Assembly: GCA_039029275.1 (NCBI GenBank)
Contig: JBCCGL010000007.1
Coordinates: forward strand, 213,428 to 277,427
Source: Pseudomonadota bacterium
GTDB taxonomy: Bacteria; Pseudomonadota; Gammaproteobacteria; JBCCGL01
Length of the DNA stretch: 64,000 bases
Reading direction: 5' to 3'
The notes under the pieces: model-generated
What the model saw: the letters and a program-made list of their open reading frames with translations, nothing else
Told to the model about the DNA's origin: nothing
The model's database searches: none
In this document: positions 3,797-55,484 of the stretch, piece by piece
Layout of the letters: each line of letters opens with the position of its first letter
Numbering within the stretch: position 1 is the stretch's first letter
Made by a program: the position numbers and the translations under genes

Positions 3797-3837
3797 ACGA
3801 TACTTATGATAATAATGAATTTGGAAAACACAGCTTT

Positions 3838-4845
3838 ATGAAAATTCTTGTAACAGGAACCGCCGGTTTCATTGGTGCTGCGCTGGCGATTCGATTACTC
3901 GAACGCGGTGATGACGTCATCGGTATAGACAACCTCAACGATTATTATGACGTTGCCATCAAACACGCGCGGCTTAAGCGCGTGAACGCGTTTGATCGAT
4001 TCACTGAAATCAATGCAAACCTTGAAGACCGAAACACAATCGAAAAAGTATTTGCGGAGCACAAACCTGAGCGGGTGATCAATCTGGCAGCGCAGGCGGG
4101 TGTGCGATATTCCCTGACTAATCCCTACGCGTATATCGATTCAAACATTTTGGGCTTTATGAATCTGCTCGAGTGCTGCCGCCACAATGAAGTTGAGCAT
4201 CTGGTTTACGCATCGAGTAGCTCGGTTTACGGCGCTAACACTTCCATGCCGTTTTCAGTTCACAATAATGTTGATCACCCGGTCAGCCTTTACGCCGCCA
4301 GTAAGAAATCCAACGAGTTGATGGCGCACACGTATAGTCATTTGTTCAACATTCCGACAACCGGCTTGCGTTTTTTTACCGTGTACGGCCCCTGGGGGCG
4401 TCCGGACATGGCTTTGTTCAAATTTACCAAGAACATTCTTGAGGACAAGCCTATCGATGTTTTCAACTATGGAAACCATCGGCGCGATTTTACCTACATC
4501 GATGACATCGTCGAAGGCGTCATTCGCACGCTTGATAGCGTTGCGAAACCCAATCCGGACTGGAATGGCGACTCGCCCGACGCCGCCACCAGCAAGGCAC
4601 CCTACCGACTCTATAACATCGGAAATAACTCACCGATTGAACTCATGCACTACATTGAAGTTCTGGAAAATTGCCTTGGCAAAAAAGCGGAAAAGAACCT
4701 TCTGCCCATGCAGGCCGGTGATGTACCTGATACCTACGCAAACGTAGAAGATCTGGTTGTCGATGTCGGCTACCGGCCGACAACCACAGTAGAAACCGGG
4801 ATCGCTCATTTCGTCGAGTGGTATCGTGACTTCTACAACTGTTAG
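3838..4845 (+). CDS. NAD-dependent nucleotide-sugar 4-epimerase (WbpP/TviC-like, UDP-GlcNAcA/UDP-GlcA 4-epimerase family)
   Basis: [13 protein letters not shown] Rossmann, [14 protein letters not shown] catalytic motif. Start placed at ATG 3838 rather than the overlong ORF start at 3736. Confidence 0.8.
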
Positions 4846-39579: not shown

Positions 39580-40341
39580 TTACGCCTCGTACTTTCGAAT
39601 ACCAAGTTTTTGCATCGTAGCAAAGCAGATAAACATAGGCACGATTGTGAAGTAGCGCTTCCACAACCGGCGAGGTTCTGTAATAAGTCGAAACAACCAC
39701 TCCAAGCCAGAACGTCGCAAAAACTTCGGCGCCTGACGGGTTCGACCCGCGTGAAAATCAAATGCTGCCCCCACTCCAACGAGCACCGGTGCGTGTAATT
39801 TGGCTCGATGTTCGGCCATCCATCGCTCCTGCTTTGGCGTGCTCAATCCGACCCAAACAATATCGGCTTCAGACGCATTAATTTGATTGGCAATTTCTTC
39901 GCTCTCCTGATCGGTGAGTGCACGAAACGGCGGTGATATGGCGCCTACAATCTGGATTTTGGGAAAACGCCGTTTTAGATTTGCCTGCAGCGCTGCCAGA
40001 GACTCCTCTGATGCCCCATAGAGAAAGTGGCGATATCCGTGGTCGTGCCCGTGATTGATCACTTCGAGCATGAGGTCAGGACCGTATACGCGGTCAGCCT
40101 GTTTGTGGCCTTCGCTGCGCATAAACCAAACCAATGGCATACCATCAGGAGTAACCAGGCCAGCATGATTGTGGATTTGCTTCAGCGCATCGTCAAACTG
40201 GCTTTCAATTATGCCGTGTACCGACGTCACACAAACGTACCGAGCAACCCGTTTGCCAATCCACGAGTGAATGGTGCCGACTGCTTCTGGCATATTGGTC
40301 GCACTTTGTCGTACGCCAAGAATATTGCAACGTTCAACCAT
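39580..40341 (-). CDS. WecB/TagA/CpsF-family glycosyltransferase (start taken at MVERCNILG)
   Basis: LLYGASEE, RFPKIQIVG, IVWVGLSTPKQE. Confidence 0.8.
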   Translation of the reverse strand: MVERCNILGVRQSATNMPEAVGTIHSWIGKRVARYVCVTSVHGIIESQFDDALKQIHNHAGLVTPDGMPLVWFMRSEGHKQADRVYGPDLMLEVINHGHDHGYRHFLYGASEESLAALQANLKRRFPKIQIVGAISPPFRALTDQESEEIANQINASEADIVWVGLSTPKQERWMAEHRAKLHAPVLVGVGAAFDFHAGRTRQAPKFLRRSGLEWLFRLITEPRRLWKRYFTIVPMFICFATMQKLGIRKYEA

Positions 40342-41620
40342 TCTGGTATTGCCCCGGGGTGCTTTGGTTTGTTGTGTTTCGCTGCCCCGACTTACGCCGA
40401 TCAGCGAGCAGCACAACAAGGTCAGCTTGATCTTCGGCTAACCTTTCAGACGCTGCGACCAACGCCAGTATTAATAAAAATGTCGTGGGGTTTGGGATAA
40501 TCAGTACCGGATTAAATAGTCCGCCAATAACACCCGAAACGAGCATTCCCATCAAAAAGGCATCCTTCGATTTGATAGCAATGATCAATGCGTAGAAAAG
40601 GATGATCAGCATCAATCCCAGTCCGATAATGCCAGTTGTTAATGCCGCTTCCACGTAACTGTTGTGGGCATGTCCAGCGAACGCAAAATGCTCTAAAAGA
40701 AAATATCGACTGGAAAAATATCCGACACCGAAAAAAGGGCTGTCTGATATAAATTCACTGGATTTTATCCATAGTGGAACTCGATTGTTTAAAGTCCAAA
40801 AGTCACGCGGCAAATTCTCGATGATGTCACCTGACAATAGGAAAACGACGAAAACCAACACGCATGCGACTGTGCAAAACCACAGTGCTACTCGCGTAGT
40901 GATTCCGCCAGAAAAATACATCACAACTGCTACAACGAGGGGGCACATCCCGATGAGGTTACGTCCGTGGGTCAAGAGAAGTATGTAGAAAAACACACCA
41001 CCGAGTATTAATTTGAGTGCAATGGGTGCACGTAATACGGTAGTAATAATTATTGCAATCAACATCAGCTCACCGGTTTCAAGAGGGTGAGAATAGCCGA
41101 GGTAAAAGCGACCTGGGCGACCGCTCCATTCGGATGCCTCGGTAAATCTAAACGGCGATCCTCCTTCTATCGCAAAGTTGGCGAATATCAATGCCACCAC
41201 CGCCGCAAAGACGCCTAACGCAATTACACGCAGAAAGCTGTTGGAGTCCAAAATGTCGAGCCCCTTCATGTAAACCACAAGCGCAACTGCGATGAAGTAA
41301 CATAGAATGAGCTCACCTCCTTTGCCGAACGACAATACGGGGTTTGTCGACCATAAAAATGTGAGCATCGCCCAGACGGCATACGCCAGTACTACAAACC
41401 ATCCTGCCGACTTAATCGCAACATAGCACTGGTTCACTATGATCGCTATGACGATAATTCCGGATGCGGCCAACAAAAGTCCGATTTCAATCACACGACT
41501 AATGCTGGACTCGCTGGTCATTACATTGCCAGTTTCCACAACGGGCATAAAAGCCATCACAACCAGAAAAATGATACAGGCAGGCAGATACAGGGTTGAC
41601 ATGTGGCCAGGACGATTCAC
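40334..41620 (-). CDS. O-antigen ligase / Wzy-like polytopic membrane protein
   Basis: 428 aa, 10 or more TM helices, Wzy_C-like loop. Confidence 0.7.
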   Translation of the reverse strand: MNRPGHMSTLYLPACIIFLVVMAFMPVVETGNVMTSESSISRVIEIGLLLAASGIIVIAIIVNQCYVAIKSAGWFVVLAYAVWAMLTFLWSTNPVLSFGKGGELILCYFIAVALVVYMKGLDILDSNSFLRVIALGVFAAVVALIFANFAIEGGSPFRFTEASEWSGRPGRFYLGYSHPLETGELMLIAIIITTVLRAPIALKLILGGVFFYILLLTHGRNLIGMCPLVVAVVMYFSGGITTRVALWFCTVACVLVFVVFLLSGDIIENLPRDFWTLNNRVPLWIKSSEFISDSPFFGVGYFSSRYFLLEHFAFAGHAHNSYVEAALTTGIIGLGLMLIILFYALIIAIKSKDAFLMGMLVSGVIGGLFNPVLIIPNPTTFLLILALVAASERLAEDQADLVVLLADRRKSGQRNTTNQSTPGQYQNG

Positions 41621-41622
41621 TG

Positions 41623-42822
41623 TCAGTGCCTTATGTGATTGCCGGCGCGGGTTTGTTGCGACGTTTGCATTGCCTGTTCGTAGATATCCATCAGCAGAGG
41701 ATAGTTTGATTCCTCCGTGTAGTTATCAAGATAAGTATTACGCGCATTGTTTCGCATTGTTGCGAGCTGTCGGTGCGATGTGCTGTATATTTCGGCTATT
41801 TTATCAGCCAGGTCGCCGGAATTCGTTGGCTCGAAAAATAGTCCGTTTACGCCATTGTTAACCAGCTCTGAAATACCTCCGATATTGGAGGCGACAACAG
41901 GTGTTCCTTTTGAAAATGACTCTATCACCGTACGACCAAACGGCTCATACCATCGTGATGGGATGACCAGGCATTTAGCCTCCCCTACTATCTTCATGGT
42001 TTGCTCAAGTGGTAATTGACCCAACCATTCGATGTTACAGCTTAAAGACGCTTGACGCGCAAGATCTGCCATAGGTCCGTCGCCAATTATCTTCAATTGA
42101 TAGTTAGAACCGAGTATTTCCCATGCACTCAGTAACGTTTCTAAATCCTTTTCTTCAGATAGACGACCAACAAACACCGCGTAGTTTCCTGACCCTTGTC
42201 CTTTGTCAATTTCACCTGATAGAAAATTCGGTTTAACAAACATACGTTGCGGGTCAAATCCAGCTTCGATATATTTTTTCCGAGTGAACTCGCTGATAGC
42301 AAAAAATGCGCTCACCTTTTTCTGCCAGGTACGAACGGAACGGTGAACCGCATTATGGAGCGTGAGGATCGTGGACGCGGCCAAGTCACCCCGGTAACAT
42401 TTGTGAACGATTGCGGGATACGCAATACGTTTATTAATGCACTTCTCGCAGATGCTTCCCTGCCTCAATAACGTTGCGCCGGGACAGATTAAGCGATAAT
42501 TTCTTAGCGACTGAACGACAGCGACGCCTTTCTTCTGCGCCGCAAAGTAAACAGACGGTGAAAGCAGCGGGAATATATTGGTGCAGTGAATGACATCCGG
42601 CTTGAAATCGCTAATCTTCTTCTCAACACGGCGATAAGAATTGCGACTCCAGAAAGTATCGATTGCTAATGCAATTTTCCCTTGATCGTTTACCTGATCG
42701 TTGTGCACGGTTAGTGTTTCGACAGCGTGGCCATGATTCCTGAGCATCGAAATTTCGTCATGAAACGACAGGTCTTCACCACCGCGAAGTTGGTAATAAT
42801 TGTGGCAGGCGAGTACGCGCAT
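41623..42822 (-). CDS. Glycosyltransferase family 4
   Basis: GT4 EX7E-type C-terminal region. Start ATG shares one nucleotide with the upstream stop. Confidence 0.85.
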   Translation of the reverse strand: MRVLACHNYYQLRGGEDLSFHDEISMLRNHGHAVETLTVHNDQVNDQGKIALAIDTFWSRNSYRRVEKKISDFKPDVIHCTNIFPLLSPSVYFAAQKKGVAVVQSLRNYRLICPGATLLRQGSICEKCINKRIAYPAIVHKCYRGDLAASTILTLHNAVHRSVRTWQKKVSAFFAISEFTRKKYIEAGFDPQRMFVKPNFLSGEIDKGQGSGNYAVFVGRLSEEKDLETLLSAWEILGSNYQLKIIGDGPMADLARQASLSCNIEWLGQLPLEQTMKIVGEAKCLVIPSRWYEPFGRTVIESFSKGTPVVASNIGGISELVNNGVNGLFFEPTNSGDLADKIAEIYSTSHRQLATMRNNARNTYLDNYTEESNYPLLMDIYEQAMQTSQQTRAGNHIRH

Positions 42823-43463
42823 TACACCACAATTTTTCTGCAATAAAATGCTTCGGCGTAACCGCTCTTTGCGTTGCATTCGATGCCGCGAATGCGCATC
42901 AAACTTTCAAATGTCTCACGAGAAAACCAATTTTTCTCGAATTGACTTGTAAAGCACTGGGTCAGATAGTCCACCTTATTTTTAACTGTCTCAGGTTCCA
43001 GTCGAAAATAAAGGTTGGGCTGACCCAGATCGCCTTCATACTTTGGAATTTCATATTCCAGAATCAGATTGTCACGAAACGTATTCCAGCATACCTCACC
43101 TAACAAGCGATGGTCCTGATGCCGATCTTCAAGCCTATGTGTGATGACCAGATCCGGATTGAATTCTCCTCGTAATTCACTGAATAGAGCTTTTATTTCT
43201 TTGTGTGAGTCAAACAAAAGGGTGTCGGTAAATGATTCGCATCTGACATTTGCATGTTTGGCGGTGGCGAGAAATTTTTGGGCAGACGCTTCGGCTTCTT
43301 TAAGCCTGACCCCGTTTGCACTCATGACTAACCAGTAAACTCTGATATTGGGGTTTGAGTCAATAAGTTGTAGAAGCGCACCACCGCAGCCGATTTCGAT
43401 GTCGTCGGCGTGTGCTCCCACCAGTAGAACGCTGCCAATTGACGAAAGATCTGGATGATACAT
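42822..43463 (-). CDS. PIG-L / LmbE-family N-acetylglucosaminyl deacetylase
   Basis: LLVGAHADDIEIGCGG. Confidence 0.8.
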   Translation of the reverse strand: MYHPDLSSIGSVLLVGAHADDIEIGCGGALLQLIDSNPNIRVYWLVMSANGVRLKEAEASAQKFLATAKHANVRCESFTDTLLFDSHKEIKALFSELRGEFNPDLVITHRLEDRHQDHRLLGEVCWNTFRDNLILEYEIPKYEGDLGQPNLYFRLEPETVKNKVDYLTQCFTSQFEKNWFSRETFESLMRIRGIECNAKSGYAEAFYCRKIVV

Positions 43464-43490: not shown

Positions 43491-44210
43491 TTAGTCGGAG
43501 AAAACCCAGGGAGCTTCACCGCTGGCATACATTTCATCAAGCATCGCTTTCTCCTTATAAGTGTCCATGCAGCCCCAAAAGCCCGGGTAATGATACGCGT
43601 GAAGTTTTTCTGCATTGATTAAACGGTCAAAGGGTTCTTCAACGAGCTCTTCACCTTCGTTGATATGCTCGAAAATATCGTAGTCGAATATAAAAAAACC
43701 GCCATTCATCCAAACTCCGGCCTGATCGACAGGATATATTTTCTGCACTTGCCCGCTATCCTTGGACTCAATTACGTGGAAGCTGTGGTACTTGGGTGAG
43801 ACAGCAACAAACGTAGCAGTGCCCTCACTGGCTTTGTGAAATTCATACATTTTGCTAAGTCGCACACTCGACAAACCGTCGGCGTAATTCGCAAAAAATG
43901 TCTCCCCTGGTTCAAAGCACTCACGGGACGCTAGAAGTCGCTGGCCGAGGTTTGCGTCTATCCCCGTGTCACGAACGCTGATTGTCCAGTCATTTGGAAC
44001 GCAATCGGGTCGCTTGCTGAAGTAATCCCTGATGATGTCGGCTTTCCAGCCCACGCACAAAATGAATTCAGTGTGTCCAAAGTACGCGTAGTAATGCATG
44101 ATGTGGACGACCATTGGTCTGTCGCCAACGGGAACCATCGGTTTTGGCAAAGGGTTAGTGTCGCCGCCAAGACGCATTCCCATACCACCGCAAAAAAGTA
44201 ATACTTTCAC
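43491..44210 (-). CDS. rfbF: Glucose-1-phosphate cytidylyltransferase
   Basis: 239 aa, FCGGMGMRLG. Confidence 0.88.
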   Translation of the reverse strand: MKVLLFCGGMGMRLGGDTNPLPKPMVPVGDRPMVVHIMHYYAYFGHTEFILCVGWKADIIRDYFSKRPDCVPNDWTISVRDTGIDANLGQRLLASRECFEPGETFFANYADGLSSVRLSKMYEFHKASEGTATFVAVSPKYHSFHVIESKDSGQVQKIYPVDQAGVWMNGGFFIFDYDIFEHINEGEELVEEPFDRLINAEKLHAYHYPGFWGCMDTYKEKAMLDEMYASGEAPWVFSD

Positions 44211-44252: not shown

Positions 44253-45530
44253 TTAAAAAACATCAAGGTGTGGGATCGGTACTACAAATTTACATCCCCA
44301 TTCACGAACGTAGGCGAGCTGATCAGTGATTTCTTCCCGTAAGTTCCAGGGCAAAATAAGTATGTAGTCAGGCCTGGTTTTTGCTATCACATCCGGAGAG
44401 TGAATAGGGATATGGCTGCCAGGCATGAACTTGCCCTGTTTGAAATCGCTGCGATCAACCGTGTAGTCAAGAAAGTCCTCACGAATTCCACAATAGTTCA
44501 ACAGAGTACCGCCCTTACCGGGGGCACCGTAACCGACTACTGATTCGCCGGCACGTTTCTTATCGATCAGAAATTCGAGCAAGGCACGTTTTATTTCCTT
44601 TGCTCTATCGCTGAAGGCCTGATAAGTCTGCATCTGATCAAAACCGTCAGCGATCTCCTGTGATTTAACGCGATCGACAGAATTAGATACCTTGTGTGTC
44701 TGACAGTCCGCGTGTTTAACGTAGTAACGCAGTGAGCCACCGTGTGTTGGAAGCTCATCAACATCGAAAACAATCAGGTCGTGGGCCTCGAATATTTTTT
44801 GAGCACTGAGTAGTGAGTAGTACGAGAAATGTTCTTGATAAAATTGATCAAACTGATTGCCTTTGATCGTTTTTGCCACATGCGGTATTTCAACTGTCAG
44901 GACACCGTCATCCGCTAACGCTATTTTCATCCCCGCGACAAAATCATTGATGTCAGGGACATGACCAAAGACATTGTTTGCGATCAGCAAATTTGCTTTT
45001 CGCCCTTCTTCGGTCAAATCTCTTGCGCATTCGCTGCCAAAAAATCTGGCAATTGTCTCAATGCCTTTACTTCGCGCGTACTCCGCAATGTTTTCTGCAG
45101 GTTCAATACCTAAGGCCGGAATTCCACGTGCTTTAACGTATTGAAGGAGGTAACCGTCATTACTTGCGATTTCGATTACCTGGCTATTTGCGTCAATTCC
45201 AAACCGTTCAACCATATTACCTACGTAATCGTCAACATGTTTTAACCATGATTCAGAGAATGAAGAGAAATATGCGTAGTGGCTGTAGATTTCTTCACCG
45301 CTGACGAAATCCAGTACTTGAACAAGGTAACAGGAGCTGCACACATAGGCTTTGACCGGGTACGTGGGCTCCATAGAATCGAGCGCTTCACGCGCAACGT
45401 AGCTTTCGCACAATGGCTGCATGCCAAGATCGACGACTTGCTGTGTTAATTCTGACTCGCAAAACCGGCAGAAGTGTTTGCTAGCGGTCGCTCCGGCGAC
45501 TGAGGTTTTCATTGCGGCTTGGGCACTCAT
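44253..45530 (-). CDS. NDP-hexose C-methyltransferase (TylC3/TcaB9-like: N-terminal Cys4 zinc ribbon, SAM-MT, C-methyltransferase C-domain)
   Basis: CRFCESE...CSSCYLVQ Cys pairs. IASNDGYLL SAM motif. Confidence 0.75.
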   Translation of the reverse strand: MSAQAAMKTSVAGATASKHFCRFCESELTQQVVDLGMQPLCESYVAREALDSMEPTYPVKAYVCSSCYLVQVLDFVSGEEIYSHYAYFSSFSESWLKHVDDYVGNMVERFGIDANSQVIEIASNDGYLLQYVKARGIPALGIEPAENIAEYARSKGIETIARFFGSECARDLTEEGRKANLLIANNVFGHVPDINDFVAGMKIALADDGVLTVEIPHVAKTIKGNQFDQFYQEHFSYYSLLSAQKIFEAHDLIVFDVDELPTHGGSLRYYVKHADCQTHKVSNSVDRVKSQEIADGFDQMQTYQAFSDRAKEIKRALLEFLIDKKRAGESVVGYGAPGKGGTLLNYCGIREDFLDYTVDRSDFKQGKFMPGSHIPIHSPDVIAKTRPDYILILPWNLREEITDQLAYVREWGCKFVVPIPHLDVF

Positions 45531-45580
45531 ATTAATTCACGCATCTAGTGGAATATTGAAAAAAATCACGGCACCTGATA

Positions 45581-46927
45581 TCAGCATGCCTGCTCAATAC
45601 CTTGAATCATTTCGAGCAAATTTTTTTCTCTAAGCGTATTCGCTGCTCGCCTGAGGGTACCCACGCTTAATCCACTGCGCTGTGCGATGCTCAGCAAATC
45701 CTGTTCGCCATCGGCACAACTGAGCATCCATAAAACAGCTTTGTGAAATGCGTCGCGTCCTGCATCTCGCGAATACCCTTCATAAAGGTTGTGCGGCGCA
45801 AGAAAAGGCTCCGCGCCATTCAAAACGGTTTTGAATACCGCGTTTGCGTCTACCGCATGTAACATTGCGAGCACCTTGTCGTAGGAATCTTGCAGACTCT
45901 GAGGGCAGACGATGTCCATGTTGTCAGCCGAGGTGTGGTATTGCGGATACTCCCCGTACGGCGTCCGCATCACGCAACCGACAGGCAGATTGATACCTGG
46001 CGAGCAATACTGGCGCTCGTCGTGCCCCCAGGGCACAAATGGGCGAATGTCGTGATCGTCACCGCTTTGTTGCAAAATCAAATCTGCAGCCCTATCGAAC
46101 TCGCTTGTTGCATGCCGTGATTGCTTATAGTGTATATGACCACTGTCGCCTAAAAGGCCGATCGAATATCCGCCTTTGATCTTGTTGAGTTGATTTTCGT
46201 TTTTCGCAAGCCATGTAATCGAGCCGATTGTTGCGGGCACAAATACGAACCGAAAACTGTAGTGGCATTTTGACTGCAAAAGCGTTTTAGCCAAGAACGC
46301 CGATACTGCAATTCCTGAAACATTGTCGTTGGCAAGCGCTGGATGACAAATATGCGTGGAGACAATAATTTCCTCATTCGACGCGCCCGGTACAAGCACT
46401 TCGCCATAACTAAGAGAACCGTCGAAATGATCAGCATCAACAAATACCTTGAATCGCTCCCCGCTTCGGGCTTTCATATCGCGGTATTGCTGTCGCTTAA
46501 CACAAAAACCCCACGACGGCGTGAAGTACGATGTTCGATAAGGAACAGCATCGTCAAATTCATGAACTGTATATAAATGCGGCTCCAGTTCTTCCCAGGT
46601 GAAATATGCATCGACCGCCGTGCTGTAACTCATTAAATGCAAATTGGAGTTTTCGATATCGACAATCTTGCGACCGGTTGAGTCCGCGATATACGCAGCG
46701 TTGACTCGCCATTCTTTCGGCACAGTCCAGTCAAATACAGCCGTGCCAGTGGGAATTTCAAAAGTCTGGATTGGAACGTGCTCTCCAATCGCGTTTAGCG
46801 TCATCCGATTCCCATCGCCGGTGATACTGCGTGGAAGATCAAACAGTGTTTCCATGAACTCATAGATCGCGTCGCCTTCTACACTCGGTGAGGTTGCCGG
46901 ATGAACACTATGAGGTGAGTTTTTCAC
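45581..46927 (-). CDS. DUF4910 / COG4310 aminopeptidase-like (M28-like) domain protein with C-terminal winged-helix region
   Basis: 448 aa. Resembles the conserved unknown-function protein found in glycan clusters. Confidence 0.65.
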   Translation of the reverse strand: MKNSPHSVHPATSPSVEGDAIYEFMETLFDLPRSITGDGNRMTLNAIGEHVPIQTFEIPTGTAVFDWTVPKEWRVNAAYIADSTGRKIVDIENSNLHLMSYSTAVDAYFTWEELEPHLYTVHEFDDAVPYRTSYFTPSWGFCVKRQQYRDMKARSGERFKVFVDADHFDGSLSYGEVLVPGASNEEIIVSTHICHPALANDNVSGIAVSAFLAKTLLQSKCHYSFRFVFVPATIGSITWLAKNENQLNKIKGGYSIGLLGDSGHIHYKQSRHATSEFDRAADLILQQSGDDHDIRPFVPWGHDERQYCSPGINLPVGCVMRTPYGEYPQYHTSADNMDIVCPQSLQDSYDKVLAMLHAVDANAVFKTVLNGAEPFLAPHNLYEGYSRDAGRDAFHKAVLWMLSCADGEQDLLSIAQRSGLSVGTLRRAANTLREKNLLEMIQGIEQAC

Positions 46928-48234
46928 TGGTTATAGGTTCGGTACACAACCTGTGTTGGACCGCCAGAGAGATAACGATCAACCCCGTCGCTGATCGCAC
47001 GTGAGTAAACCGCTAGTGCTCCATCTACTGCTTCAATGGTTTTGTCGACATCATCGTTCGAATGGGAATAGCTGATAATGAATGACGGCCCGATAATACC
47101 GCGCTTGATGATTTCCTGCATAAACAGGGCACGATAATACTGCGATGATTTTTTGTCTTGATCTTTAGTTACATAGACAAGGCATTGGGGTTCGCCAACG
47201 ATTTGCACATAGTCTTGGAGATCGTGGTTTGCAATTACTTCATCCAACCCAGATTTCAGCCTCATGCCTTGATTACTCAGGGTTTCAATGACGGGTTCAT
47301 TCTTGTATGTATCCATGGTTGCGATAGCGGCTGCTAGCGCGTGAGTTTCTGCACCGTGCGTGGTTGATAACAAAAACACACGTGGGTGATTGTGATACAG
47401 GCCACCTCGTTCCATGTATTGCGATTTTCCTAACAGTGCTGAAACGGCAAACCCATTGCCTAACGCTTTGCCAAATGTCGATAGGTCAGGTTCGATATCG
47501 TAAAGAGACTGGCAGCCACCGTTGTGCCAGCGAAAACCCGTTATCATTTCGTCCAGAACAAACAAGGCACCGTTCCTATGGCAAAGATCTTTAACTCTGT
47601 GTAAAAAGTTATCTTTCGGCGGTTCGTATTTAGTCGGCTCCAAAATCACACAGGCGATTTCATTGGGGTTCGCGTTAAAGAGTGCCTCAAGGCCGTTTAT
47701 ATCATTGAAGGAAAATGTTAGAGAAAGCGATTTTGTTTGCTCTGGAATACCGGCGTCCATGGCAGTTTTTCCGATAAACCAATCATTCGTGGCAAAGAAC
47801 GGATGGTCAATGCAAAACGCTACCTTGTCGCGACCGGTCACCGCACGCGCGAGCTTTACAGCTGCAGTTGTCGCTGACGAACCATCTTTGACAAACTTAA
47901 CCATTTCCGCTGCCGGTACCATTTCTAAAAGTGACTGAGCGCAATAGGTTTCAATTGGGGCGGGGCGACAAAAATTAGCCCCATTTAGCATTTCATTCTG
48001 CGCGGCCTCTACCACTGGTGGATACGCGTGCCCCAAAGTGACCGCGCGGCAGCCCATTCCGTACTCGATATATTCGTTGTCATCGAAGTCCCATACGTGA
48101 CTACCCGATCCGCGTTTCAAGAATGCCGGTGAATTTTCCGGAAATTGGTCGTCGCCCTTCGCATATGTGTGACATCCACCTGGGATAATTTCGTGGCAGA
48201 TTTTTTGTAGGGACTTTGATTCATCTGACTGCAT
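46924..48234 (-). CDS. Class-III (GSA-aminomutase-like) PLP aminotransferase
   Basis: 436 aa, LDEMITGFR PLP-lysine region. Confidence 0.85.
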   Translation of the reverse strand: MQSDESKSLQKICHEIIPGGCHTYAKGDDQFPENSPAFLKRGSGSHVWDFDDNEYIEYGMGCRAVTLGHAYPPVVEAAQNEMLNGANFCRPAPIETYCAQSLLEMVPAAEMVKFVKDGSSATTAAVKLARAVTGRDKVAFCIDHPFFATNDWFIGKTAMDAGIPEQTKSLSLTFSFNDINGLEALFNANPNEIACVILEPTKYEPPKDNFLHRVKDLCHRNGALFVLDEMITGFRWHNGGCQSLYDIEPDLSTFGKALGNGFAVSALLGKSQYMERGGLYHNHPRVFLLSTTHGAETHALAAAIATMDTYKNEPVIETLSNQGMRLKSGLDEVIANHDLQDYVQIVGEPQCLVYVTKDQDKKSSQYYRALFMQEIIKRGIIGPSFIISYSHSNDDVDKTIEAVDGALAVYSRAISDGVDRYLSGGPTQVVYRTYNQ

Positions 48235-48256
48235 GATTAACTCGCTTTCAAGTTTT

Positions 48257-49408
48257 CTATCTGGTCAATCCATGTGCGCTACGGTATGCACGTTCAAACA
48301 CCTCGATCTGACCGAGGCTGAAATCACGCATGTTATGAGCTGAATCAGTGAAATAGTGCTTGTACCAGTCGACTGTATGTTGCAGCGCCTCGTCAATACC
48401 CCACACTGGCCGCCAGTGTAATTGCCATAGAGCTTTGTCAATCGTGAGGCGCAAAATCGTCGATTCATGCGGTTGCTCCGGATCGCTGCAATCTTGCCAA
48501 CTGCCGTGCCCCCAAACAGACAGAAAGCGTTCAACAATGTCGCGAACAGGCAGCTCGTTACCGGGCACGGGGCCAAAATTCCAACCACTGCAGTACGTTG
48601 GATCGTCAGAGCTTAAAAGTCGATCAGCTAATGTGAGATAGCCACTCAGGCATGAAAGCACATGCTGCCACGGTCTGTATGCACCCGGATTTCGAATATG
48701 TGCGGGTTTGTTTTGCGATATCGCGGCGATCAAATCAACCAGTAAGGCATCTGCCGTCCAATCACCGCCTCCAATTACGTTGCCTGCACGCGCACTTGCT
48801 AGTTTTACACCGTGTTCACTAATTTTTTCTTCGGGAAAGAAAGAAGAGCGGTAGCTTTGAACAACTATCTCAGTGCTACCTTTGCTTGCCCCGTAAGGGT
48901 CAGGTGATCCAAAGGCGTCTGATTCACGATAGCCCCACACTTGTTCACGATTTTCATAACACTTGTCGCTGCTCACAACAATAACGCTGCAAGGTTTGTC
49001 GAGACCCCGAACACCATCCAGCAGACATGCAGTACCCACTGTGTTTATATCGAACGTTTCGCGCGGTGAACGATAACCCTCTAGCACGACAGTTTGCGCT
49101 GCCATGTGAATTATCAAATCTGGGGTCGCCTCGCGCATCGCTGCATGCATCTTCGACTCATCACGGATATCACCTTCTATATGGCGTGCAAGCGTCGATT
49201 CGATCTGTGAGATCGAGAAGTGATTTGGCGTTGTTGGAGGGGTCCATGAATAGCCGGTTACCTCCGCGCCAAGACGTTGCAACCACAAACACAACCACGG
49301 GCCTTTAAATCCGGTGTGTCCGGTAACGAAAACCCGCTTACCTTTTATTGATTGAAACAACTGGTTTGACAATGTGATAAACCAAAATAGACTGATTGAA
49401 CTAAGCAA
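48257..49408 (-). CDS. rfbG: CDP-glucose 4,6-dehydratase (true start probably about 20 codons inside the ORF)
   Basis: KGKRVFVTGHTGFKGPWLCLWL. Confidence 0.88.
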   Translation of the reverse strand: MLSSISLFWFITLSNQLFQSIKGKRVFVTGHTGFKGPWLCLWLQRLGAEVTGYSWTPPTTPNHFSISQIESTLARHIEGDIRDESKMHAAMREATPDLIIHMAAQTVVLEGYRSPRETFDINTVGTACLLDGVRGLDKPCSVIVVSSDKCYENREQVWGYRESDAFGSPDPYGASKGSTEIVVQSYRSSFFPEEKISEHGVKLASARAGNVIGGGDWTADALLVDLIAAISQNKPAHIRNPGAYRPWQHVLSCLSGYLTLADRLLSSDDPTYCSGWNFGPVPGNELPVRDIVERFLSVWGHGSWQDCSDPEQPHESTILRLTIDKALWQLHWRPVWGIDEALQHTVDWYKHYFTDSAHNMRDFSLGQIEVFERAYRSAHGLTR

Positions 49409-50351
49409 TCTTTGGCGACACTCGCGACACGATGTTGTTCAATCGAGTTTCCGCGATGAGCCACCACTTCTTGTATTGAAATAGGTAAACAATAAGCCAG
49501 AAAATACACTTAAGTTTCGTAGACGCGTCGTTCCCACTGTCCATTGCAACCGACAAGTAGCCGGAAAACTGCCGCAACAGGGGGGTATGTATAATTCGTT
49601 TCCGAATAGCGGAATTTTTTGACTCACGTGTAGCGCCTGAAATTGAACCGGAGTGAACACGCTGGCTGAACAGCATCTGTGGTAAATCCCAAAAGCGTCC
49701 ATGTACAGCCAACTCAGCCATCATTAACTTTTCTGACCCGTAGAACGATTGCATTAGTCCGGTTTTACCCAATGCTTCGGACTTGAAAACGCCGGAGCAG
49801 CGCACGCCCCACCCTGACGACAGCAACACATCGCCAAAACGTCGGGAAAAATAGTGTGACGACCCATCGCGTCTGTGCCGGATGTTGTCCTTCTCTTGAC
49901 CACCATCCGTGGGGTCAGGAAAGCCCTTAATCTCGTTACCGTACTCGTTAATCGTCATCGTGCGCGAGTGACAACAAACAACGCTCAAATCGTTCTCCAG
50001 AACCTCTACGCACCTTGCCACGAACTCCGGATCACATAGATCATCACAAGCGGCCCACTTAAAATACTTACCATTGGACAAGTGGAAAACACGCGAGAAA
50101 TTCCAGTTTGACCCTTTGTTTTGACTCTCCCTGACGTAACGTATTCTTTTGTCCTTCTCCGCGTATAATCGACAAATCTCAGCTGTTTGATCGGTCGATG
50201 CGTTATCCGAAATCACGATCTCGATGTTGTCGTAAGTCTGGGCGAGCAATGAGTCGAGCGACTCTGATAGAAACTCATCAGCGTTGTACACCGGTACCCC
50301 GATACTGACCAGCGGTTGTTGTGAATTGCTCTGATTCATTTCAGTCCGCAA
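49401..50351 (-). CDS. Glycosyltransferase family 2
   Basis: VSIGVPVYNADEFL...ISDNASTD. Confidence 0.85.
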   Translation of the reverse strand: MRTEMNQSNSQQPLVSIGVPVYNADEFLSESLDSLLAQTYDNIEIVISDNASTDQTAEICRLYAEKDKRIRYVRESQNKGSNWNFSRVFHLSNGKYFKWAACDDLCDPEFVARCVEVLENDLSVVCCHSRTMTINEYGNEIKGFPDPTDGGQEKDNIRHRRDGSSHYFSRRFGDVLLSSGWGVRCSGVFKSEALGKTGLMQSFYGSEKLMMAELAVHGRFWDLPQMLFSQRVHSGSISGATRESKNSAIRKRIIHTPLLRQFSGYLSVAMDSGNDASTKLKCIFWLIVYLFQYKKWWLIAETRLNNIVSRVSPKIA

Positions 50352-50354
50352 TCG

Positions 50355-51848
50355 CTAGTACGCGTTCTCACCAACGATGCCGCGAAATGCAGTCATCACC
50401 AGAATCTTGATATCCAAACCAATTGACCAGTTATCAATATAGTAAAGGTCATGATCGACGCGTTTGCGCATGTCGGCTTCTTCCCACACTGCTCCACGCA
50501 ATCCATTAACCTGAGCCCAGCCGGTGATGCCTGGGCGTACGCGATGGCGCGCAAAATATCGTGTGACAACAGGCGCAAATTCGTCACCCAATGGCACTGG
50601 GTGTGGGCGGGGACCAATCAGCGACATAGTGCCTTGCAAGACGTTCAATATTTGCGGTAACTCATCAATACTGGTGCTTCGCAGAAACGCGCCAATTCGT
50701 GTAATCCGAGGATCGTCACGCAACGTTTGATCTTCACCTGAGACAGGTGCGGCGCCTTCTTTCATTGTGCGAAATTTGTAAACGAAGAATTCCTTGTTAT
50801 TGAATCCGTGACGAGGCTGCCTAAACAATGCAGGTCCCGGGCTGTCCAATCGAATGAGAATCGCCACTATCAGTAAGATCGGTGATAATAAAATGATTAG
50901 AATAAAAGCAAGGATTTTATCCTCTGCCAGTTTTAGCGCGTATCGCCATCCGTCCAGGGGGTGGAATACGATATCTAATGTTTTTACGTTGCCGATTGCA
51001 CTGTTAGTCGGGGTGGAGTAAATGAAGTTTTCAAGATTACTGCCAAGGCGAATGTTAATCGGTAATTCCATCAACTTTTCTATGATTTCACCGATACGCT
51101 TATTGGCAGTCCAAGGTAAAGTAATGACAATGTCGTCGACTCGATTACGACGGCAAAACTCTATAACGTCGTCAACCTTTCCCCATTTTTTCGATTGAAG
51201 TCGCCTCTCGAATCCCTCTCGCTGTATTCTGTCGTCAAAGACCCCTATTACTCGGTTCCAAGGCTCAGATTCGTAATCCAGACCATCGAGAAAATGATCG
51301 GCCTCGGCGCCACCTCCAATCAGGACAATACGGCGAACGAAACGACCATGCCGCGCTAACCAGTGCAATAGAAAAAACCAGACGATTCGGTGAACGCCGA
51401 AGAGAACCAATGAGGATGCAAACCAACTGAGCAACCACAGGCGTGAAAACTGATCAGAGATTTTTAGAAAAAAGGCGACCGCAGTGAATAGTAGAAACAC
51501 AACGCCGACGGAAAGTACTTGTCTCCAAACAAATCCAACCGGGCGCGAAATCGCATTAAAGCTATCCAACTTCCATAAAAAATTGGAAACTACAATCCCT
51601 ATCGAGATCATAACGCAGGCAGAAAAATGCTGACTAAGCAAGGCGTTTTCTACCCCAAGGATGACTACGAAGGAAGCAGCACCGGTCAGAATCAGGATCA
51701 GGAAATCGACAGTGAACACGGCAGCGATGATCACGGCTTCAGAATACGGCACCACCTTTCGTCTCCGTCTGGGCTTTATCTCATTGTCCGACGGCGAAAC
51801 GCTAAAGTCCTGACTCATGTAATGACTACCAAAATTTGCGCTGACCAT
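50355..51848 (-). CDS. Undecaprenyl-phosphate hexose-1-phosphate transferase (WbaP/WcaJ-type initiating enzyme)
   Basis: 497 aa. N-terminal TM block plus CoA-binding-like domain, C-terminal sugar-transferase domain DELPQ...SLIGPRP. Confidence 0.88.
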
Positions 51849-51891
51849 TTGCGGAATTCAAACCCGGAACACATACATCCAAATTCCATGA

Positions 51892-52878
51892 TCATGTAAC
51901 CGCTGCCACGCGCGGTTTCAGTTGAATTGACCTAAAATAGTCTATGGTCTTCGCGAGCCCATGCTCTATCCCAATTTCCGGTTTCCATTTCAGTTCCTGC
52001 TTAGCAAGCGTAATGTCAGGGCAACGACGCACCGGGTCATCTTGTGGTAGTTCTTCAAAAACGAGTTCCGAATTCGACGCGCATAATTCGATCACAAGCT
52101 CAGCTAACTCCCGTATAGTTTTTTCCGAGGGATTGCCTAAATTAACAGGGCCAGTGAACTTAGAATCGGTTTGTGCAATTTTGATAAATCCCTCGATTAA
52201 GTCATCAACATAACAAAACGAACGGGTTTGATTGCCCTCACCGAACACCGTCAGTGGCTCATTATTGAGAGCCTGAATTATGAAATTTGAAACCACACGC
52301 CCATCGTCCGGATACAGACGTGGACCGTAAGTGTTAAATATTCGGGCGACTTTAATTTCAAGATGGTGTTGACGGTGATAATCGAAAAACAAGGTTTCTG
52401 CGCAGCGTTTGCCTTCGTCATAGCATGCACGGGGCCCCACAGGGTTCACGCTACCGAGATAGCTTTCGTGTTGTGGATGGACTTCAGGGTCTCCGTAAAC
52501 TTCACTGGTGGATGCTTGTATTATTTTGGCGCCGACGCGTTTAGCCAGCCCGAGCATATTGATCGCCCCGTGAACGTTTGTTTTTACCGTTTGCGCGGGG
52601 TCGCTTTGGTAATGTATTGGAGACGCCGGGCACGCAAAGTTAAATATTTCGTCTACTTCCACATAAAGCGGGAATGTAATGTCGTGCCTCAACAGCTCAA
52701 AGCGCGTGTCGTCGAGTAAGTGAACAACGTTGTCGCGTGAGCCGGTATAGTAGTTGTCGACACAAAGGACTTCGCAATCCTCTGCAAGCAAACGCTCGCA
52801 TAAATGTGAGCCAAGAAACCCTGCTCCCCCTGTCACAAGCACACGCTTGCGCCCCCAGTTTCTTCGTCTGCTTGTCAT
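51892..52878 (-). CDS. UDP-glucuronate decarboxylase (UDP-xylose synthase, short-chain dehydrogenase/reductase family)
   Basis: [20 protein letters not shown] catalytic motif. Confidence 0.88.
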
Positions 52879-53402: not shown

Positions 53403-54479
53403 CTATTGCATTGCTTCGAGGGTCCACTCTTTAATGGATTGAATCGTGTGCTCGCTGTTAACACCGAAGTTGGGATTTATCACCAATGGCCCCGGGCGGT
53501 ACCCTTTGCTCTTAAGTCCTTTTTGAACGGAGTTGACCAGCAAAATGTCTTCGGCCACCGTTGTATTGCGATCCAGTTCAGCGACTTGTTTCGTGGTCTC
53601 AGACGCTTCGTCGCTGGTTGAAAACCAGTCGCGATGAACTCGCACGTTTTCATGATCCACGGGTTCCCACAGGTATGTATTGAGTTCGTTTCCCGGGTAC
53701 ACCTGGAATGAAAACATCGGCCACAAGAACCAAGAGCTGTAATCGTTCGCATGGGGCACACTGGCATCAAATGCATAGGTCTGTTTGTCACCTTTTGATA
53801 CGGTTTGGTGACGCAAACAGTACCCCTGCGGACGAATGTCGTAACACTTCGCGTCGATCACACCGCTCGTAAATGCCTGATGCACAGGCGCACAGTGATA
53901 ACACTCGGAATAGTTTTCAATGCTGACTTTCCAATTGCATGCTTCTTCTGCACTTACCCGCAAAACCGGCTTCAGGTCAGGCAGGTTTGGGAGGTATTCA
54001 GCGAGCTGCTCGCGAACTTGTGGATAGAGTTCATCCATTGTTGGTGCGCTATCATCGAGATTCAAAAACAAAAAGCCGTGAAAATTTTCCAGACGAACTG
54101 GAGTGAGGCAGACTTTTCCTTTGTCAAAGCCTGGTACTTTATCGGCGTGTGGCGCTCGAATTAACTCGCCGCTCAGTTGATAAGCCCACGTGTGATACGG
54201 GCATACAATGACGCTCGTATTTCCCTGCCCTTCCAAAAGTTCGTGCGCCCGGTGTTGGCACACATTATAAAAAGCGCGCAGAGCGTTGTCTTTGCCGCGC
54301 GAGATAAACACACTTTGATCACCGATGCGCGTCGTAATGTAGTCTCCAGGATTTCGCAGGCTCGAGACATGTCCGGCATATTGCCAGGTACGGTAAAATA
54401 ATTTCTCCTTTTCTTGCTCGAAAATCGCCGGATCGGTGTAATAGTGGTTTGGGAGTGCCGTGACTAATTCTGCGCTCAT
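53403..54479 (-). CDS. Rieske [2Fe-2S] non-heme-iron oxygenase alpha subunit, CntA/GbcA (carnitine or betaine C-N cleaving) family
   Basis: CQHRAHEL...CPYHTW Rieske. ENYSECYHC mononuclear iron. NSVQKGLKSKGYRPG (cf. CntA ESVQRGLKSRGYRG). Confidence 0.85.
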   Translation of the reverse strand: MSAELVTALPNHYYTDPAIFEQEKEKLFYRTWQYAGHVSSLRNPGDYITTRIGDQSVFISRGKDNALRAFYNVCQHRAHELLEGQGNTSVIVCPYHTWAYQLSGELIRAPHADKVPGFDKGKVCLTPVRLENFHGFLFLNLDDSAPTMDELYPQVREQLAEYLPNLPDLKPVLRVSAEEACNWKVSIENYSECYHCAPVHQAFTSGVIDAKCYDIRPQGYCLRHQTVSKGDKQTYAFDASVPHANDYSSWFLWPMFSFQVYPGNELNTYLWEPVDHENVRVHRDWFSTSDEASETTKQVAELDRNTTVAEDILLVNSVQKGLKSKGYRPGPLVINPNFGVNSEHTIQSIKEWTLEAMQ

Positions 54480-54499
54480 TGGTCAATCTCTACAAACTG

Positions 54500-55384
54500 T
54501 TATGCCTTACCGTCGTCATAGACGCCTGTTTCAAAGCGAAGTTGGTGAAAGCCTTCGATGCTCGCGACAACTTCTGGTTCGGAGTCCGCGACGATAAACG
54601 CCGTGAGTGTTTCCAGCAATGCTAAAGTCGCCATGTGCGAAGGGAAAAACTGCGGAGTCTTGTTCGGTGCTATGAAGACGTAATCTGCCCCAGCGACAAT
54701 CGGAGCAGATAGGCTATCGGTAATCACCGCCGTCGTCGCGCCCTTTGATTGCGCGTATGCCGTCGCTTCAATTACATCCGTGCGATAAGGCGCAAACGTC
54801 ATCGATAGCAACAGATCGCTTTTACCCGTTTTGACCATATCGTCAATTGGCAGACTACCAATTCGCGGAACCTGCACCAGGTTGTCTAACGCCATTCGCG
54901 TCACGTACCAGAAGTTGTGCGCCATCGAGTAAACCGCTCCAACCCCGAGCACATATGTAAGTCGTGACGCGACGATTGCGTCAGCTAACTCTTTGAGTTT
55001 CGCCACATCGATTCCGGCGAACAGTTCTTCCGTATTCGAAATACTTGCGGCTGCCATCTCGGCCAACAGGTCGCTGTGACTGTGTCCTTTTTTTATTGAC
55101 TGTAACCAACGAGCGCGATCAGGAAAGCTCTCACCCGCCTCAAGTAGCGACTGGCGAAATGGCTCGCGCATCCCTTCGTAACTGTCAAATCCAACAGCAC
55201 GTGCAAGCCTGACCAAGGTGTTCGGATGAACGTTGGCGTCGTTGGCAACATGCCGCATGGAATTGATTCCGATCTCATTGCCGTTATCAAGCAGATACTG
55301 TGCCGCACGCTTGAGCTGTGGACTTAACTCAGGATACGAGTCAGCGACTTTTTCCAGAACGGATTGTGCGGTCAGGGCTGGCAT
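54500..55384 (-). CDS. RpiR/MurR-family regulator (HTH + SIS)
   Basis: 294 aa. Confidence 0.85.
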   Translation of the reverse strand: MPALTAQSVLEKVADSYPELSPQLKRAAQYLLDNGNEIGINSMRHVANDANVHPNTLVRLARAVGFDSYEGMREPFRQSLLEAGESFPDRARWLQSIKKGHSHSDLLAEMAAASISNTEELFAGIDVAKLKELADAIVASRLTYVLGVGAVYSMAHNFWYVTRMALDNLVQVPRIGSLPIDDMVKTGKSDLLLSMTFAPYRTDVIEATAYAQSKGATTAVITDSLSAPIVAGADYVFIAPNKTPQFFPSHMATLALLETLTAFIVADSEPEVVASIEGFHQLRFETGVYDDGKA

Positions 55385-55484
55385 ATCACTCCATTATGGT
55401 ACACACGTACTAATTTGTATTGACAATTATTCAAATGTATCAATACTACGCGACCAAGTCGAGTTTTTTTAGCGCAAAATTGAG

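Follow-up and report, generated by a model that had tools for sequence, protein, structure and literature searches.

What does a relative of the zinc aminopeptidases do in the middle of a nucleotide-sugar pathway? The question is raised by a polysaccharide operon in a 64,000-nucleotide stretch of a gammaproteobacterial genome (Pseudomonadota bacterium, assembly GCA_039029275.1, contig JBCCGL010000007.1, positions 213,428 to 277,427), the whole of which we call the window. In this operon a DUF4910-family protein is encoded between a class-III aminotransferase (AT3) and a C-methyltransferase (C-MT). A preliminary description, made from the sequence alone, had read these genes and their neighbors as a nucleotide-sugar tailoring cassette, which is supported by the family assignments, the residues of the C-MT and the recurrence of the cassette in other genomes. 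Our reading is that the cassette makes a cytidine diphosphate (CDP)-linked, C-methylated, aminated 6-deoxy sugar within a Wzy-type operon by the route set out below, and we give it a probability of about one half. The association of DUF4910 proteins with sugar biosynthesis is already published (2010 and 2014); their chemistry is unsolved.

The minus strand does hold all five genes of that description, in the order it gave. These are rfbG, for a CDP-glucose 4,6-dehydratase of the RfbG/DdhB type (48257-49408; TIGR02622); AT3, a class-III pyridoxal phosphate (PLP) aminotransferase of the PRK06209 family (46924-48234; PF00202, NF004856); a DUF4910+DUF2172+HTH_47 protein of the CA_C2195/Cj1295 family (45581-46927; Pfam, PDB 3K9T); the C-MT, a nucleoside diphosphate (NDP)-hexose C-methyltransferase of the TylC3/TcaB9/MtmC family (44253-45530; Methyltransf_13/23/14); and an RfbF-paralogous sugar-1-phosphate nucleotidyltransferase (43491-44210; PF00483). 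The interval assigned to the cassette had ended at 44253, leaving out the last of these genes, and had missed a PIG-L/LmbE-family zinc de-N-acetylase (42822-43463, minus strand; PF02585) that is part of the same conserved module. RfbG scores 425.5 bits with TIGR02622, against an equivalog cut-off of 278.45, and its translation contains SSDKCY and YGASK motifs; the true start of rfbG probably lies slightly downstream of the listed TTG. On this strong homology, RfbG is predicted to make the 4-keto-6-deoxy intermediate by CDP-hexose 4,6-dehydration.

The C-MT is assigned with similar strength. It consists of an N-terminal zinc ribbon (Methyltransf_13), a class-I S-adenosylmethionine (SAM) domain and a C-terminal Methyltransf_14 domain, all three above their Pfam cut-offs, and its best PDB matches are MtmC (4rv9, E=2e-81) followed by KijD1 and TcaB9 at ~1e-61 (TcaB9, 4e-61). 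The zinc-ribbon cysteines C21, C24, C64 and C67 align with identical TcaB9 cysteines, and identical TcaB9 residues also stand opposite Y85, H190, Y231, E233 and H234; we take these to be the catalytic Y76, H181, Y222, E224 and H225 that were mutated in that enzyme. The TylC3/TcaB9-type assignment made earlier is thus borne out, and an FkbM or UbiE affiliation is not what we observe. The protein falls in a tight clade (57-65% identity) from polysaccharide loci that nearly always also encode DUF4910. By strong homology, we expect it to be a genuine NDP-hexose C-methyltransferase that uses SAM to methylate a carbon beside the 4-keto group; analogy suggests C3 as that carbon. Two of the loci that most resemble the window have, close to the main cassette, a second and divergent C-MT-like gene whose product has Methyltransf_23 and Methyltransf_14 but no zinc ribbon (L082:2352-3578 and L091:5419-6726).

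AT3 had been described as a class-III aminotransferase and not one of the DegT type usual for sugars. This is correct: it matches PF00202 only, with no match to the DegT-family model PF01041. The PLP lysine is present within TFGKALGNG. AT3 scores 694 bits with NF004856/PRK06209 (cut-off 486), a model that, like HemL, is named glutamate-1-semialdehyde (GSA) aminomutase, and it falls below both HemL cut-offs (TIGR00713, 230 against 527.3 bits; NF000818, 237 against 398). These curated cut-offs and the polysaccharide-cassette context of the whole family rule out a housekeeping HemL. Among solved structures, GSA aminomutases match at ~1e-50 and aminoglycoside C-6′ aminotransferases at ~1e-24. Homologues 56-69% identical to AT3 are found across many lineages.

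The DUF4910 protein aligns end to end with CA_C2195 (PDB 3K9T, E=7e-112) and has the marks of DUF4910/PIRSF015244 membership, namely a DUF2172 insert, a C-terminal HTH_47 domain, a His-Asp-His site and a place in a glycan-biosynthesis locus. Its zinc triad H195/D201/H331, which corresponds to H189, D195 and H324 of 3K9T, is invariant in 108 homologues, and the 24 residues checked in the active-site region, the triad included, are identical or nearly so in the 108 sequences in any gene context. The positions of the M28 catalytic Asp and Glu, mapped through 3K9T, are A197 and P231 (PMC4000134). Only three metal ligands are kept, against five for the two co-catalytic zincs of M28, and the PF04389 match is marginal at 25 bits. 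We therefore rule out an ordinary aminopeptidase, since neither the catalytic residues nor the second zinc site is present (PMC4000134), and predict a mono-zinc (His-Asp-His) M28-like enzyme. Most members have Ser where the window protein has A197 (Ala in 6 of the 108 sequences), and the residue at this position does not track the presence of AT3, RfbG or PIG-L. The window protein sits on a long branch together with those of two other RfbG-type loci. The family is large: a full-library search returned 4,483 clusters at 50% identity with E<=1e-3, 2,716 at 1e-10 and 869 at 1e-30, with members in cyanobacteria, Nitrospira, Acidobacteria, Streptomyces, rhizobia, Campylobacter and others.

The preliminary description treated this protein as uncharacterised and of unknown function. 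No reaction has been assigned, and we found no biochemical assignment or follow-up in the literature on the family, but the first word goes too far, since a structure, a neighborhood analysis and the genetics of Cj1295 have been published. Cj1295 (PIRSF015244) was shown in 2010 to be required for a 5-N-(di-O-methylglyceroyl) pseudaminic acid on the flagellin of C. jejuni NCTC 11168, with cleavage of the 5-acetamido group as the activity that its authors proposed (PMC3068675). It is the only DUF4910 family member with a phenotype, and a 2026 study lists cj1295 only as a 'putative transferase' (PMC13130089). From the 3K9T structure and from gene neighborhoods, Das et al. (2014) argued for a non-peptidase role in the synthesis of modified surface carbohydrates, perhaps transacylation or deacylation; the neighborhoods of the CA_C2195 family include nucleotidyltransferase, epimerase/dehydratase and SAM methylase genes, and the winged helix-turn-helix (wHTH) domain of 3K9T is circularly permuted and was judged a substrate-recognition module (PMC4000134).

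AT3 and the DUF4910 protein appear to work as a unit. The AT3 stop and the DUF4910 start share the 4-nt overlap GTGA reported earlier, with the TGA stop within it (the sequence reads ...CAGTGAAAA), and this GTG is the sole in-frame start upstream of the conserved N-terminal region. A natural DUF4910-AT3 fusion (P0257), whose gene comes after an SDR and an RmlC gene, has an aminotransferase domain 52% identical to the window AT3 over 433 residues, which supports direct functional coupling of the two proteins, as the preliminary description had suggested.

Other fusions show the wider company of the family. Among the best 150 DUF4910 representatives we examined 20 longer proteins, in which the partner is Antibiotic_NAT (9), CTP_transf_3 (3), a class-I methyltransferase (2), Formyl_trans_N (2), Aminotran_3 (1), AMP-binding (1), UDP-glucose dehydrogenase (1) or no recognisable domain (1). 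Antibiotic_NAT, Formyl_trans_N, AMP-binding and Aminotran_3 thus account for 13 of the 19 recognisable partners, and the predominance of amine-acylating ones suggests that other branches of the family act on amines or N-acyl groups. A hidden Markov model of the DUF4910-fused N-acetyltransferase domains has no hit in the window and a single hit in all 160 loci, itself a fusion. Two fusions lie in settings of their own. One, of an AAC(3)-type N-acetyltransferase with DUF4910 (L165:8001-10049), sits within a module for phage head morphogenesis: a Mu-F-like gene lies on one side and the prohead protease and capsid genes on the other, a terminase and a portal gene are upstream, and no sugar pathway is nearby. 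The other, an AMP-binding-DUF4910 fusion (L167:4989-11442), is followed by two open reading frames (ORFs) of 75-92 aa, two Antibiotic_NAT genes and a formyltransferase gene, and adjoins flgB, flgC and fliE, which encode parts of the flagellar rod; the arrangement has the look of acyl-carrier-based N-acylation serving a flagellar glycan and recalls the Cj1295 region.

To place the window among its relatives we collected 80 DUF4910-seeded loci from one-genome-per-species contigs, in which DUF4910 is 43-48% identical to that of the window. They span cyanobacteria, Nitrospirota, Acidobacteriota, Actinomycetota, Bacteroidota, Planctomycetota and Proteobacteria. The loci were scanned with the window proteins and with representatives of other recurrent neighbors, and counts were made on the 65 loci of at least 15 kb. 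An AT3-seeded set comprised 3 genome loci and 80 metagenome loci, with counts on the 23 metagenome loci of at least 12 kb. Among the 65 DUF4910-seeded loci, the C-MT is present in 61, a GalE-like SDR ('SDRc3') in 52, an RmlC-like epimerase in 41, the RfbF paralogue in 40, PIG-L in 40, AT3 in 20, true RfbF in 18 and a short-chain reductase (adhS) in 17; a nucleotidyltransferase, either true RfbF or the paralogue, is found in nearly all. The AT3-seeded loci (n=23) have a nucleotidyltransferase in 19, DUF4910 in 18, RmlC in 17, PIG-L in 16 and the C-MT in 15. The full trio of AT3, DUF4910 and C-MT is found in 20/65 genome loci and 14/23 AT3-seeded loci. The profiling of DUF4910 neighbors proposed in the preliminary description thus shows the trio recurring in other genomes.

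Typical gene orders are RfbF-SDRc3-C-MT-RmlC-DUF4910-(reductase) and SDRc3-C-MT-paralogue-PIG-L-RmlC-(AT3)-DUF4910. The window order is shared by Rubinisphaera margarita (AT3-DUF4910-(oxygenase-like)-C-MT-NTase-PIG-L, NTase being the nucleotidyltransferase), and metagenome contig L091 has RfbG-AT3-DUF4910-C-MT followed by Wzz-like, Wzy_C, GT4 and TagA genes. The GT4-TagA pair of the window is found in L091 and also in L031. RfbG itself is unusual in such a cassette: it is present in only 1/65 genome loci, and elsewhere its place is filled by the GalE-like SDR and the RmlC-like epimerase. RfbG and SDRc3 do not occur together (0 loci with both, 4 with RfbG only, 66 with SDRc3 only, 18 with neither), and neither the RmlC-like epimerase nor the GalE-like SDR was found when searched for in the window. 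SDRc3 lacks the dehydratase acid/base dyad, and its nearest structure is the remote 6vo6 (E=1e-21), presumably Cj1427. Most cassettes would therefore probably make a 4-ketohexose without 6-deoxygenation and the window a 6-deoxy version. The window cassette is a somewhat atypical member, with RfbG replacing SDR and epimerase, of a conserved cassette.

Several features of these sister loci deserve mention in their own right. The cassettes with true RfbF (L011, L022, L032, L042, L062, L066, L073 and others) have the GalE-like SDR, often together with an L-2-hydroxyglutarate-oxidase-like flavoprotein, a gene present in 12 loci (NF008726, 315 bits against a cut-off of 299). If 6vo6 is indeed Cj1427, a C4-dehydrogenase that turns alpha-ketoglutarate into L-2-hydroxyglutarate, SDR and oxidase look like a co-substrate recycling pair for a CDP-hexose C4-oxidase. 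A ~310-aa protein absent from the window is encoded in 17 loci, usually beside AT3 or between DUF4910 and the C-MT (L003:7168-8106, L087:4238-5194, L082:10755-11669); it has no Pfam match above threshold and sub-cut-off matches to the 2OG-Fe(II) oxygenase family PF13759. In Nitrospira-type cassettes DUF4910 is directly followed by an unannotated gene of 289 aa (L076:11533-12399 and five similar loci) with a weak RmlA-type match (E=0.002), by which these cassettes may hold two nucleotidyltransferases; the match raises, without supporting, the idea of nucleotide exchange.

One pattern in the survey concerns the fate of the keto group. Across the 65 loci, AT3 never occurs with a reductase (adhS or SDRc10): the two are together in 0 loci, with AT3 alone in 20, a reductase alone in 28 and neither in 17 (p=9e-7). 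The AT3-only state is spread over 7 DUF4910 sequence clusters and the adhS-only state over 5. AT3 and the reductases exclude each other, so they look like alternative fates of one carbonyl. Additionally, RfbG directly adjoins AT3 in 8/9 loci that hold both, and the window cassette has no 4-ketoreductase. Together these observations suggest that AT3 probably aminates a sugar keto group.

A second pattern concerns the start of the pathway. RfbF and RfbG had been said to give CDP-4-keto-6-deoxyglucose together. The RfbG part stands on its TIGR02622 score; the RfbF part does not, as the 239-aa nucleotidyltransferase scores 166.5 bits with TIGR02623, below the RfbF equivalog cut-off of 300.25. Paralogues at other loci score 207-212 bits with this model and true RfbF of sister cassettes 380-440. 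The nearest structure is RfbF (1tzf, E=2e-36), aligned with an internal deletion, and by sequence the window enzyme is an RfbF paralogue, not a proven RfbF. It is shorter than other paralogues (~270 aa), with ~18 residues missing around Salmonella RfbF residues 68-90. The paralogue goes with PIG-L (38 of the 65 loci have both, 2 the paralogue only, 2 PIG-L only and 23 neither), whereas true RfbF avoids it (1 both, 17 RfbF only, 39 PIG-L only, 8 neither). PIG-L itself is clearly assigned (PF02585, 53.8 bits against a cut-off of 28.2; AHADD and HQDH metal motifs in the translation). Because the nucleotidyltransferase of the window is a PIG-L-linked paralogue, the starting sugar-1-phosphate is not established, and the tie to PIG-L hints that the starting sugar or a neighboring residue is N-acetylated.

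On these grounds we propose the following route. The RfbF-paralogous nucleotidyltransferase would activate a hexose-1-phosphate, probably with cytidine triphosphate (CTP), the identity of the sugar being uncertain. RfbG would convert the product to a CDP-4-keto-6-deoxyhexose, a step with strong homology behind it. The TcaB9-type C-MT and SAM would then methylate the carbon beside the keto group, C3 if analogy is a guide to the regiochemistry. AT3 would turn the remaining keto group into an amine; the lack of a 4-ketoreductase, the mutual exclusion of AT3 and reductases and the near-constant adjacency of RfbG and AT3 lead us to infer this step. The DUF4910 protein would act directly with AT3 on the same intermediate. 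The predicted product is CDP-4-amino-4,6-dideoxy-3-C-methylhexose, which the glycosyltransferases of the operon would then use.

For the DUF4910 protein itself, our tentative best guess is hydrolase or acyl-transfer-type chemistry on a sugar amine or amide. The fusions, together with the phenotype of Cj1295 and the His-Asp-His zinc site, lead us to favor amine or amide chemistry. Mono-zinc sites of this kind are typical of de-N-acetylases. Several observations weigh against this assignment or against the route as a whole. In 18/65 loci the C-MT and DUF4910 occur with neither AT3 nor PIG-L, 14 of the 18 with true RfbF, and no aminotransferase or N-acyltransferase was found among the 25 most frequent Pfam families of 95 further neighboring ORFs in 14 loci, a set overlapping those 18. 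Given such cassettes and an active site that does not change with context, an amine-directed role cannot be general for DUF4910, and a purely amine-directed role is weakened by the cassettes with no recognisable nitrogen-installing gene. The window operon encodes no acyl donor or acyltransferase. CDP-glucose as the start is assumed from RfbG alone, because the nucleotidyltransferase fails the RfbF cut-off. We know of no class-III aminotransferase acting on an NDP-4-ketosugar. Finally, the 65 locus counts are not phylogenetically independent and collapse to 22 DUF4910 clusters at 65% identity. The same cassettes fit a zinc Lewis-acid enzyme that isomerises, epimerises or rearranges the C-methylated NDP-4-ketosugar before AT3 or a reductase acts, for example by enediolate, retro-aldol or alpha-ketol chemistry. 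A single shared substrate would account for several observations at once: the checked active-site residues are the same whether AT3, adhS or SDRc10 follows, DUF4910 is kept where a pathway from true RfbF has neither AT3 nor PIG-L, the usual order is SDR-C-MT-RmlC-DUF4910-(adhS or AT3), the C-MT accompanies DUF4910 in nearly every locus, and consecutive enzymes are often fused, as DUF4910 is to AT3. Yet we know of no M28/MH-clan protein with such chemistry, TylC3, TcaB9 and MtmC need no such partner, most fusions are to N-acyl-transfer enzymes, and the Cj1295 phenotype concerns an N-acyl group (PMC3068675), so that we hold keto processing to be doubtful, though nearly as likely as the amine or amide chemistry. 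Other hydrolytic or non-catalytic roles are possible as well. It is, however, highly improbable that the protein stands outside the pathway chemistry as a winged-helix regulator, a scaffold or a merely co-transcribed ordinary peptidase. The C-terminal wHTH and the PA-like insert are typical of protein or peptide recognition (PMC4000134), and no member of the family has a demonstrated reaction; against this stand the triad and ~20 surrounding residues kept (nearly) invariant in many phyla, the replacement of the M28 catalytic pair, the mid-operon position of the gene in dozens of loci, the fusions to pathway enzymes and the published reading of the permuted wHTH as a substrate-recognition module (PMC4000134).

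The identity of the starting sugar and the reaction of AT3 can also be read differently. If the start were an N-acetylhexosamine (HexNAc)-1-phosphate, the paralogue would make NDP-HexNAc for PIG-L to deacetylate at the 2-nitrogen, DUF4910 would act on one of the two nitrogens (for example by acyl exchange) and the product would be a 2,4-diamino-2,4,6-trideoxy-C-methylhexose. The near-perfect co-occurrence of paralogue and PIG-L and the avoidance of PIG-L by true RfbF are what such a start would predict, and PIG-L-family enzymes (MshB, BshB, PIG-L) act on alpha-linked N-acetylglucosamine (GlcNAc). The Cj1295-dependent acyl group is also carried by the nitrogen that was the 2-amino nitrogen of GlcNAc (PMC3068675, read with the established pseudaminic acid pathway). 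But RfbG clears the equivalog cut-off for CDP-glucose 4,6-dehydratases by a wide margin, a cassette with two zinc deacetylase-like proteins would contain a redundancy, PIG-L could act instead on lipid-linked GlcNAc added by the adjacent GT4, and we know of no CDP-HexNAc pathway; we consider a HexNAc start rather unlikely. It is more unlikely still that AT3 is no C4 aminase at all, acting as a true aminomutase that shifts an amine beside a carbonyl or making a non-sugar amine or side chain. Its nearest solved relatives are GSA aminomutases, class-III enzymes usually take aldehydes or omega-amines (as the aminoglycoside 6′-aminotransferases do), and AT3 is weakly associated with PIG-L (odds ratio 2.6, p=0.05). 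The strict exclusivity with candidate ketoreductases, the RfbG neighbor in 8/9 loci and the lack in the window cassette of any other enzyme able to consume the 4-keto group argue for C4 amination as in the proposed route.

The cassette is embedded in a polysaccharide operon of 12 co-directional genes on the minus strand, running from 52878 to 39580 (~13 kb), with intergenic gaps of at most 50 nt and several gene overlaps. The order is UXS-like SDR, WcaJ-type transferase, GT2, RfbG, AT3, DUF4910, C-MT, RfbF-like nucleotidyltransferase, PIG-L, GT4, Wzy_C and WecG/TagA. The first three genes (49401-52878, minus strand; PF01370, TIGR03023 and PF00535, respectively) include the undecaprenyl-phosphate glucose-1-phosphate transferase of WcaJ type, which scores 453 bits with TIGR03023 against a cut-off of 411. 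The last three (39580-42879, minus strand; Pfam) encode the GT4 glycosyltransferase, a Wzy_C (O-antigen polymerase/ligase-like) membrane protein and the WecG/TagA glycosyltransferase, and the likely start of GT4 is 42822, overlapping the PIG-L stop. Past the operon, comEC and msbA-lpxK-kdsB follow on the same strand. A promoter and terminator scan of the operon gave counts no higher than in shuffled sequence, and no Wzx-type flippase and no Wza/Wzc export genes are found within it. The setting is a Wzy-type surface-polysaccharide operon, probably similar to those for the O-antigen of lipopolysaccharide. About 35 kb away, at 2504-4845, the window has a UDP-glucose/GDP-mannose dehydrogenase gene and an SDR epimerase/dehydratase gene. 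Past the upstream end of the operon, 53403-57926 holds a Rieske-type oxygenase-like ORF, an RpiR-like regulator ORF and a divergent 813-aa ORF resembling dimethylglycine/sarcosine dehydrogenase, each read from its translation alone; these genes are probably unrelated to the cassette.

The interest of the locus lies in two widespread families, DUF4910 and the HemL-like AT3, that have no known reaction. PRK06209 aminotransferases are routinely annotated, wrongly, as HemL of the haem pathway. We tentatively suggest that DUF4910 is a new mono-zinc nucleotide-sugar enzyme whose obligate partner is what would be the first class-III (HemL-like) aminotransferase for an NDP-ketosugar, its place being taken by a reductase in sister cassettes. 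Such pairs would make C-methyl-branched hexoses that are far commoner in environmental bacteria than the few published structures suggest; the product in the window might then be the undescribed CDP-4-amino-3-C-methyl-4,6-dideoxyhexose. Published examples include the 3-C-methylmannose of H. pylori and the 3-C-methylrhamnose found in a few bacteria associated with plants. The wide spread of the cassette contrasts with the description of C-3-methyl sugars as uncommon in bacterial glycans (PMC9912281). With a standard CDP-glucose 4,6-dehydratase, no epimerase and translationally coupled AT3 and DUF4910, the window is an unusually simple test bed, and because of this layout the substrates of both enzymes could be made enzymatically from CDP-glucose. 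Once solved, the cassette would give names to two large families, put right a frequent error of annotation and explain how C-methyl-branched surface sugars arise.

How does the cassette compare with known systems? Its C-MT is like TcaB9, MtmC, TylC3 and KijD1 in its three domains, zinc-ribbon cysteines and catalytic Tyr/His/Tyr/Glu/His set. Those enzymes act on dTDP-linked 2,6-dideoxy or 3-amino antibiotic sugars and need no DUF4910 partner, whereas the window enzyme probably uses a CDP-sugar that retains its 2-hydroxyl. The CDP-3,6-dideoxyhexose pathway (RfbF/DdhA, RfbG/DdhB, RfbH/E1, RfbI/E3) overlaps with the proposed route in CDP-glucose 4,6-dehydration and in having an RfbF-like nucleotidyltransferase, though in the window the latter is below the RfbF cut-off and E1 and E3 are absent. 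E1 lacks the PLP lysine that AT3 keeps. With no E1 or E3 and a class-III AT3 whose lysine is retained, the classical pathway is ruled out. The aminoglycoside C-6′ aminotransferases of the GenB and NeoB types are, like AT3, class-III PLP enzymes that act on carbohydrate carbonyls, but they aminate pseudo-oligosaccharide aldehydes, not nucleotide-sugar ketones, and AT3 is nearer to the GSA aminomutases. The C. jejuni heptose pathway uses the C4-dehydrogenase Cj1427 with alpha-ketoglutarate, the epimerase Cj1430 and the reductase Cj1428 (PMC10680097). It is resembled by the sister cassettes only, with their GalE-like SDR without the dehydratase dyad, RmlC-like epimerase and reductase; the window has RfbG and lacks SDR and epimerase. 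Two flagellar systems hold relatives of the DUF4910 protein. The Cj1295 system differs in its CMP-nonulosonic acid sugar, its DegT aminotransferase and its protein glycan target. Presumably, though, Cj1295 directly follows pseB (a 4,6-dehydratase) and pseC (an aminotransferase), an order that would mirror RfbG-AT3-DUF4910 in the window. CA_C2195 of Clostridium acetobutylicum belongs to a flagellar glycan cluster (nonulosonic acid, acyl carrier protein, N-acetyltransferase) and not to a CDP-hexose/C-MT cassette, yet it shares with the window protein the three-domain architecture, the zinc triad and the loss of the M28 catalytic Asp and Glu.

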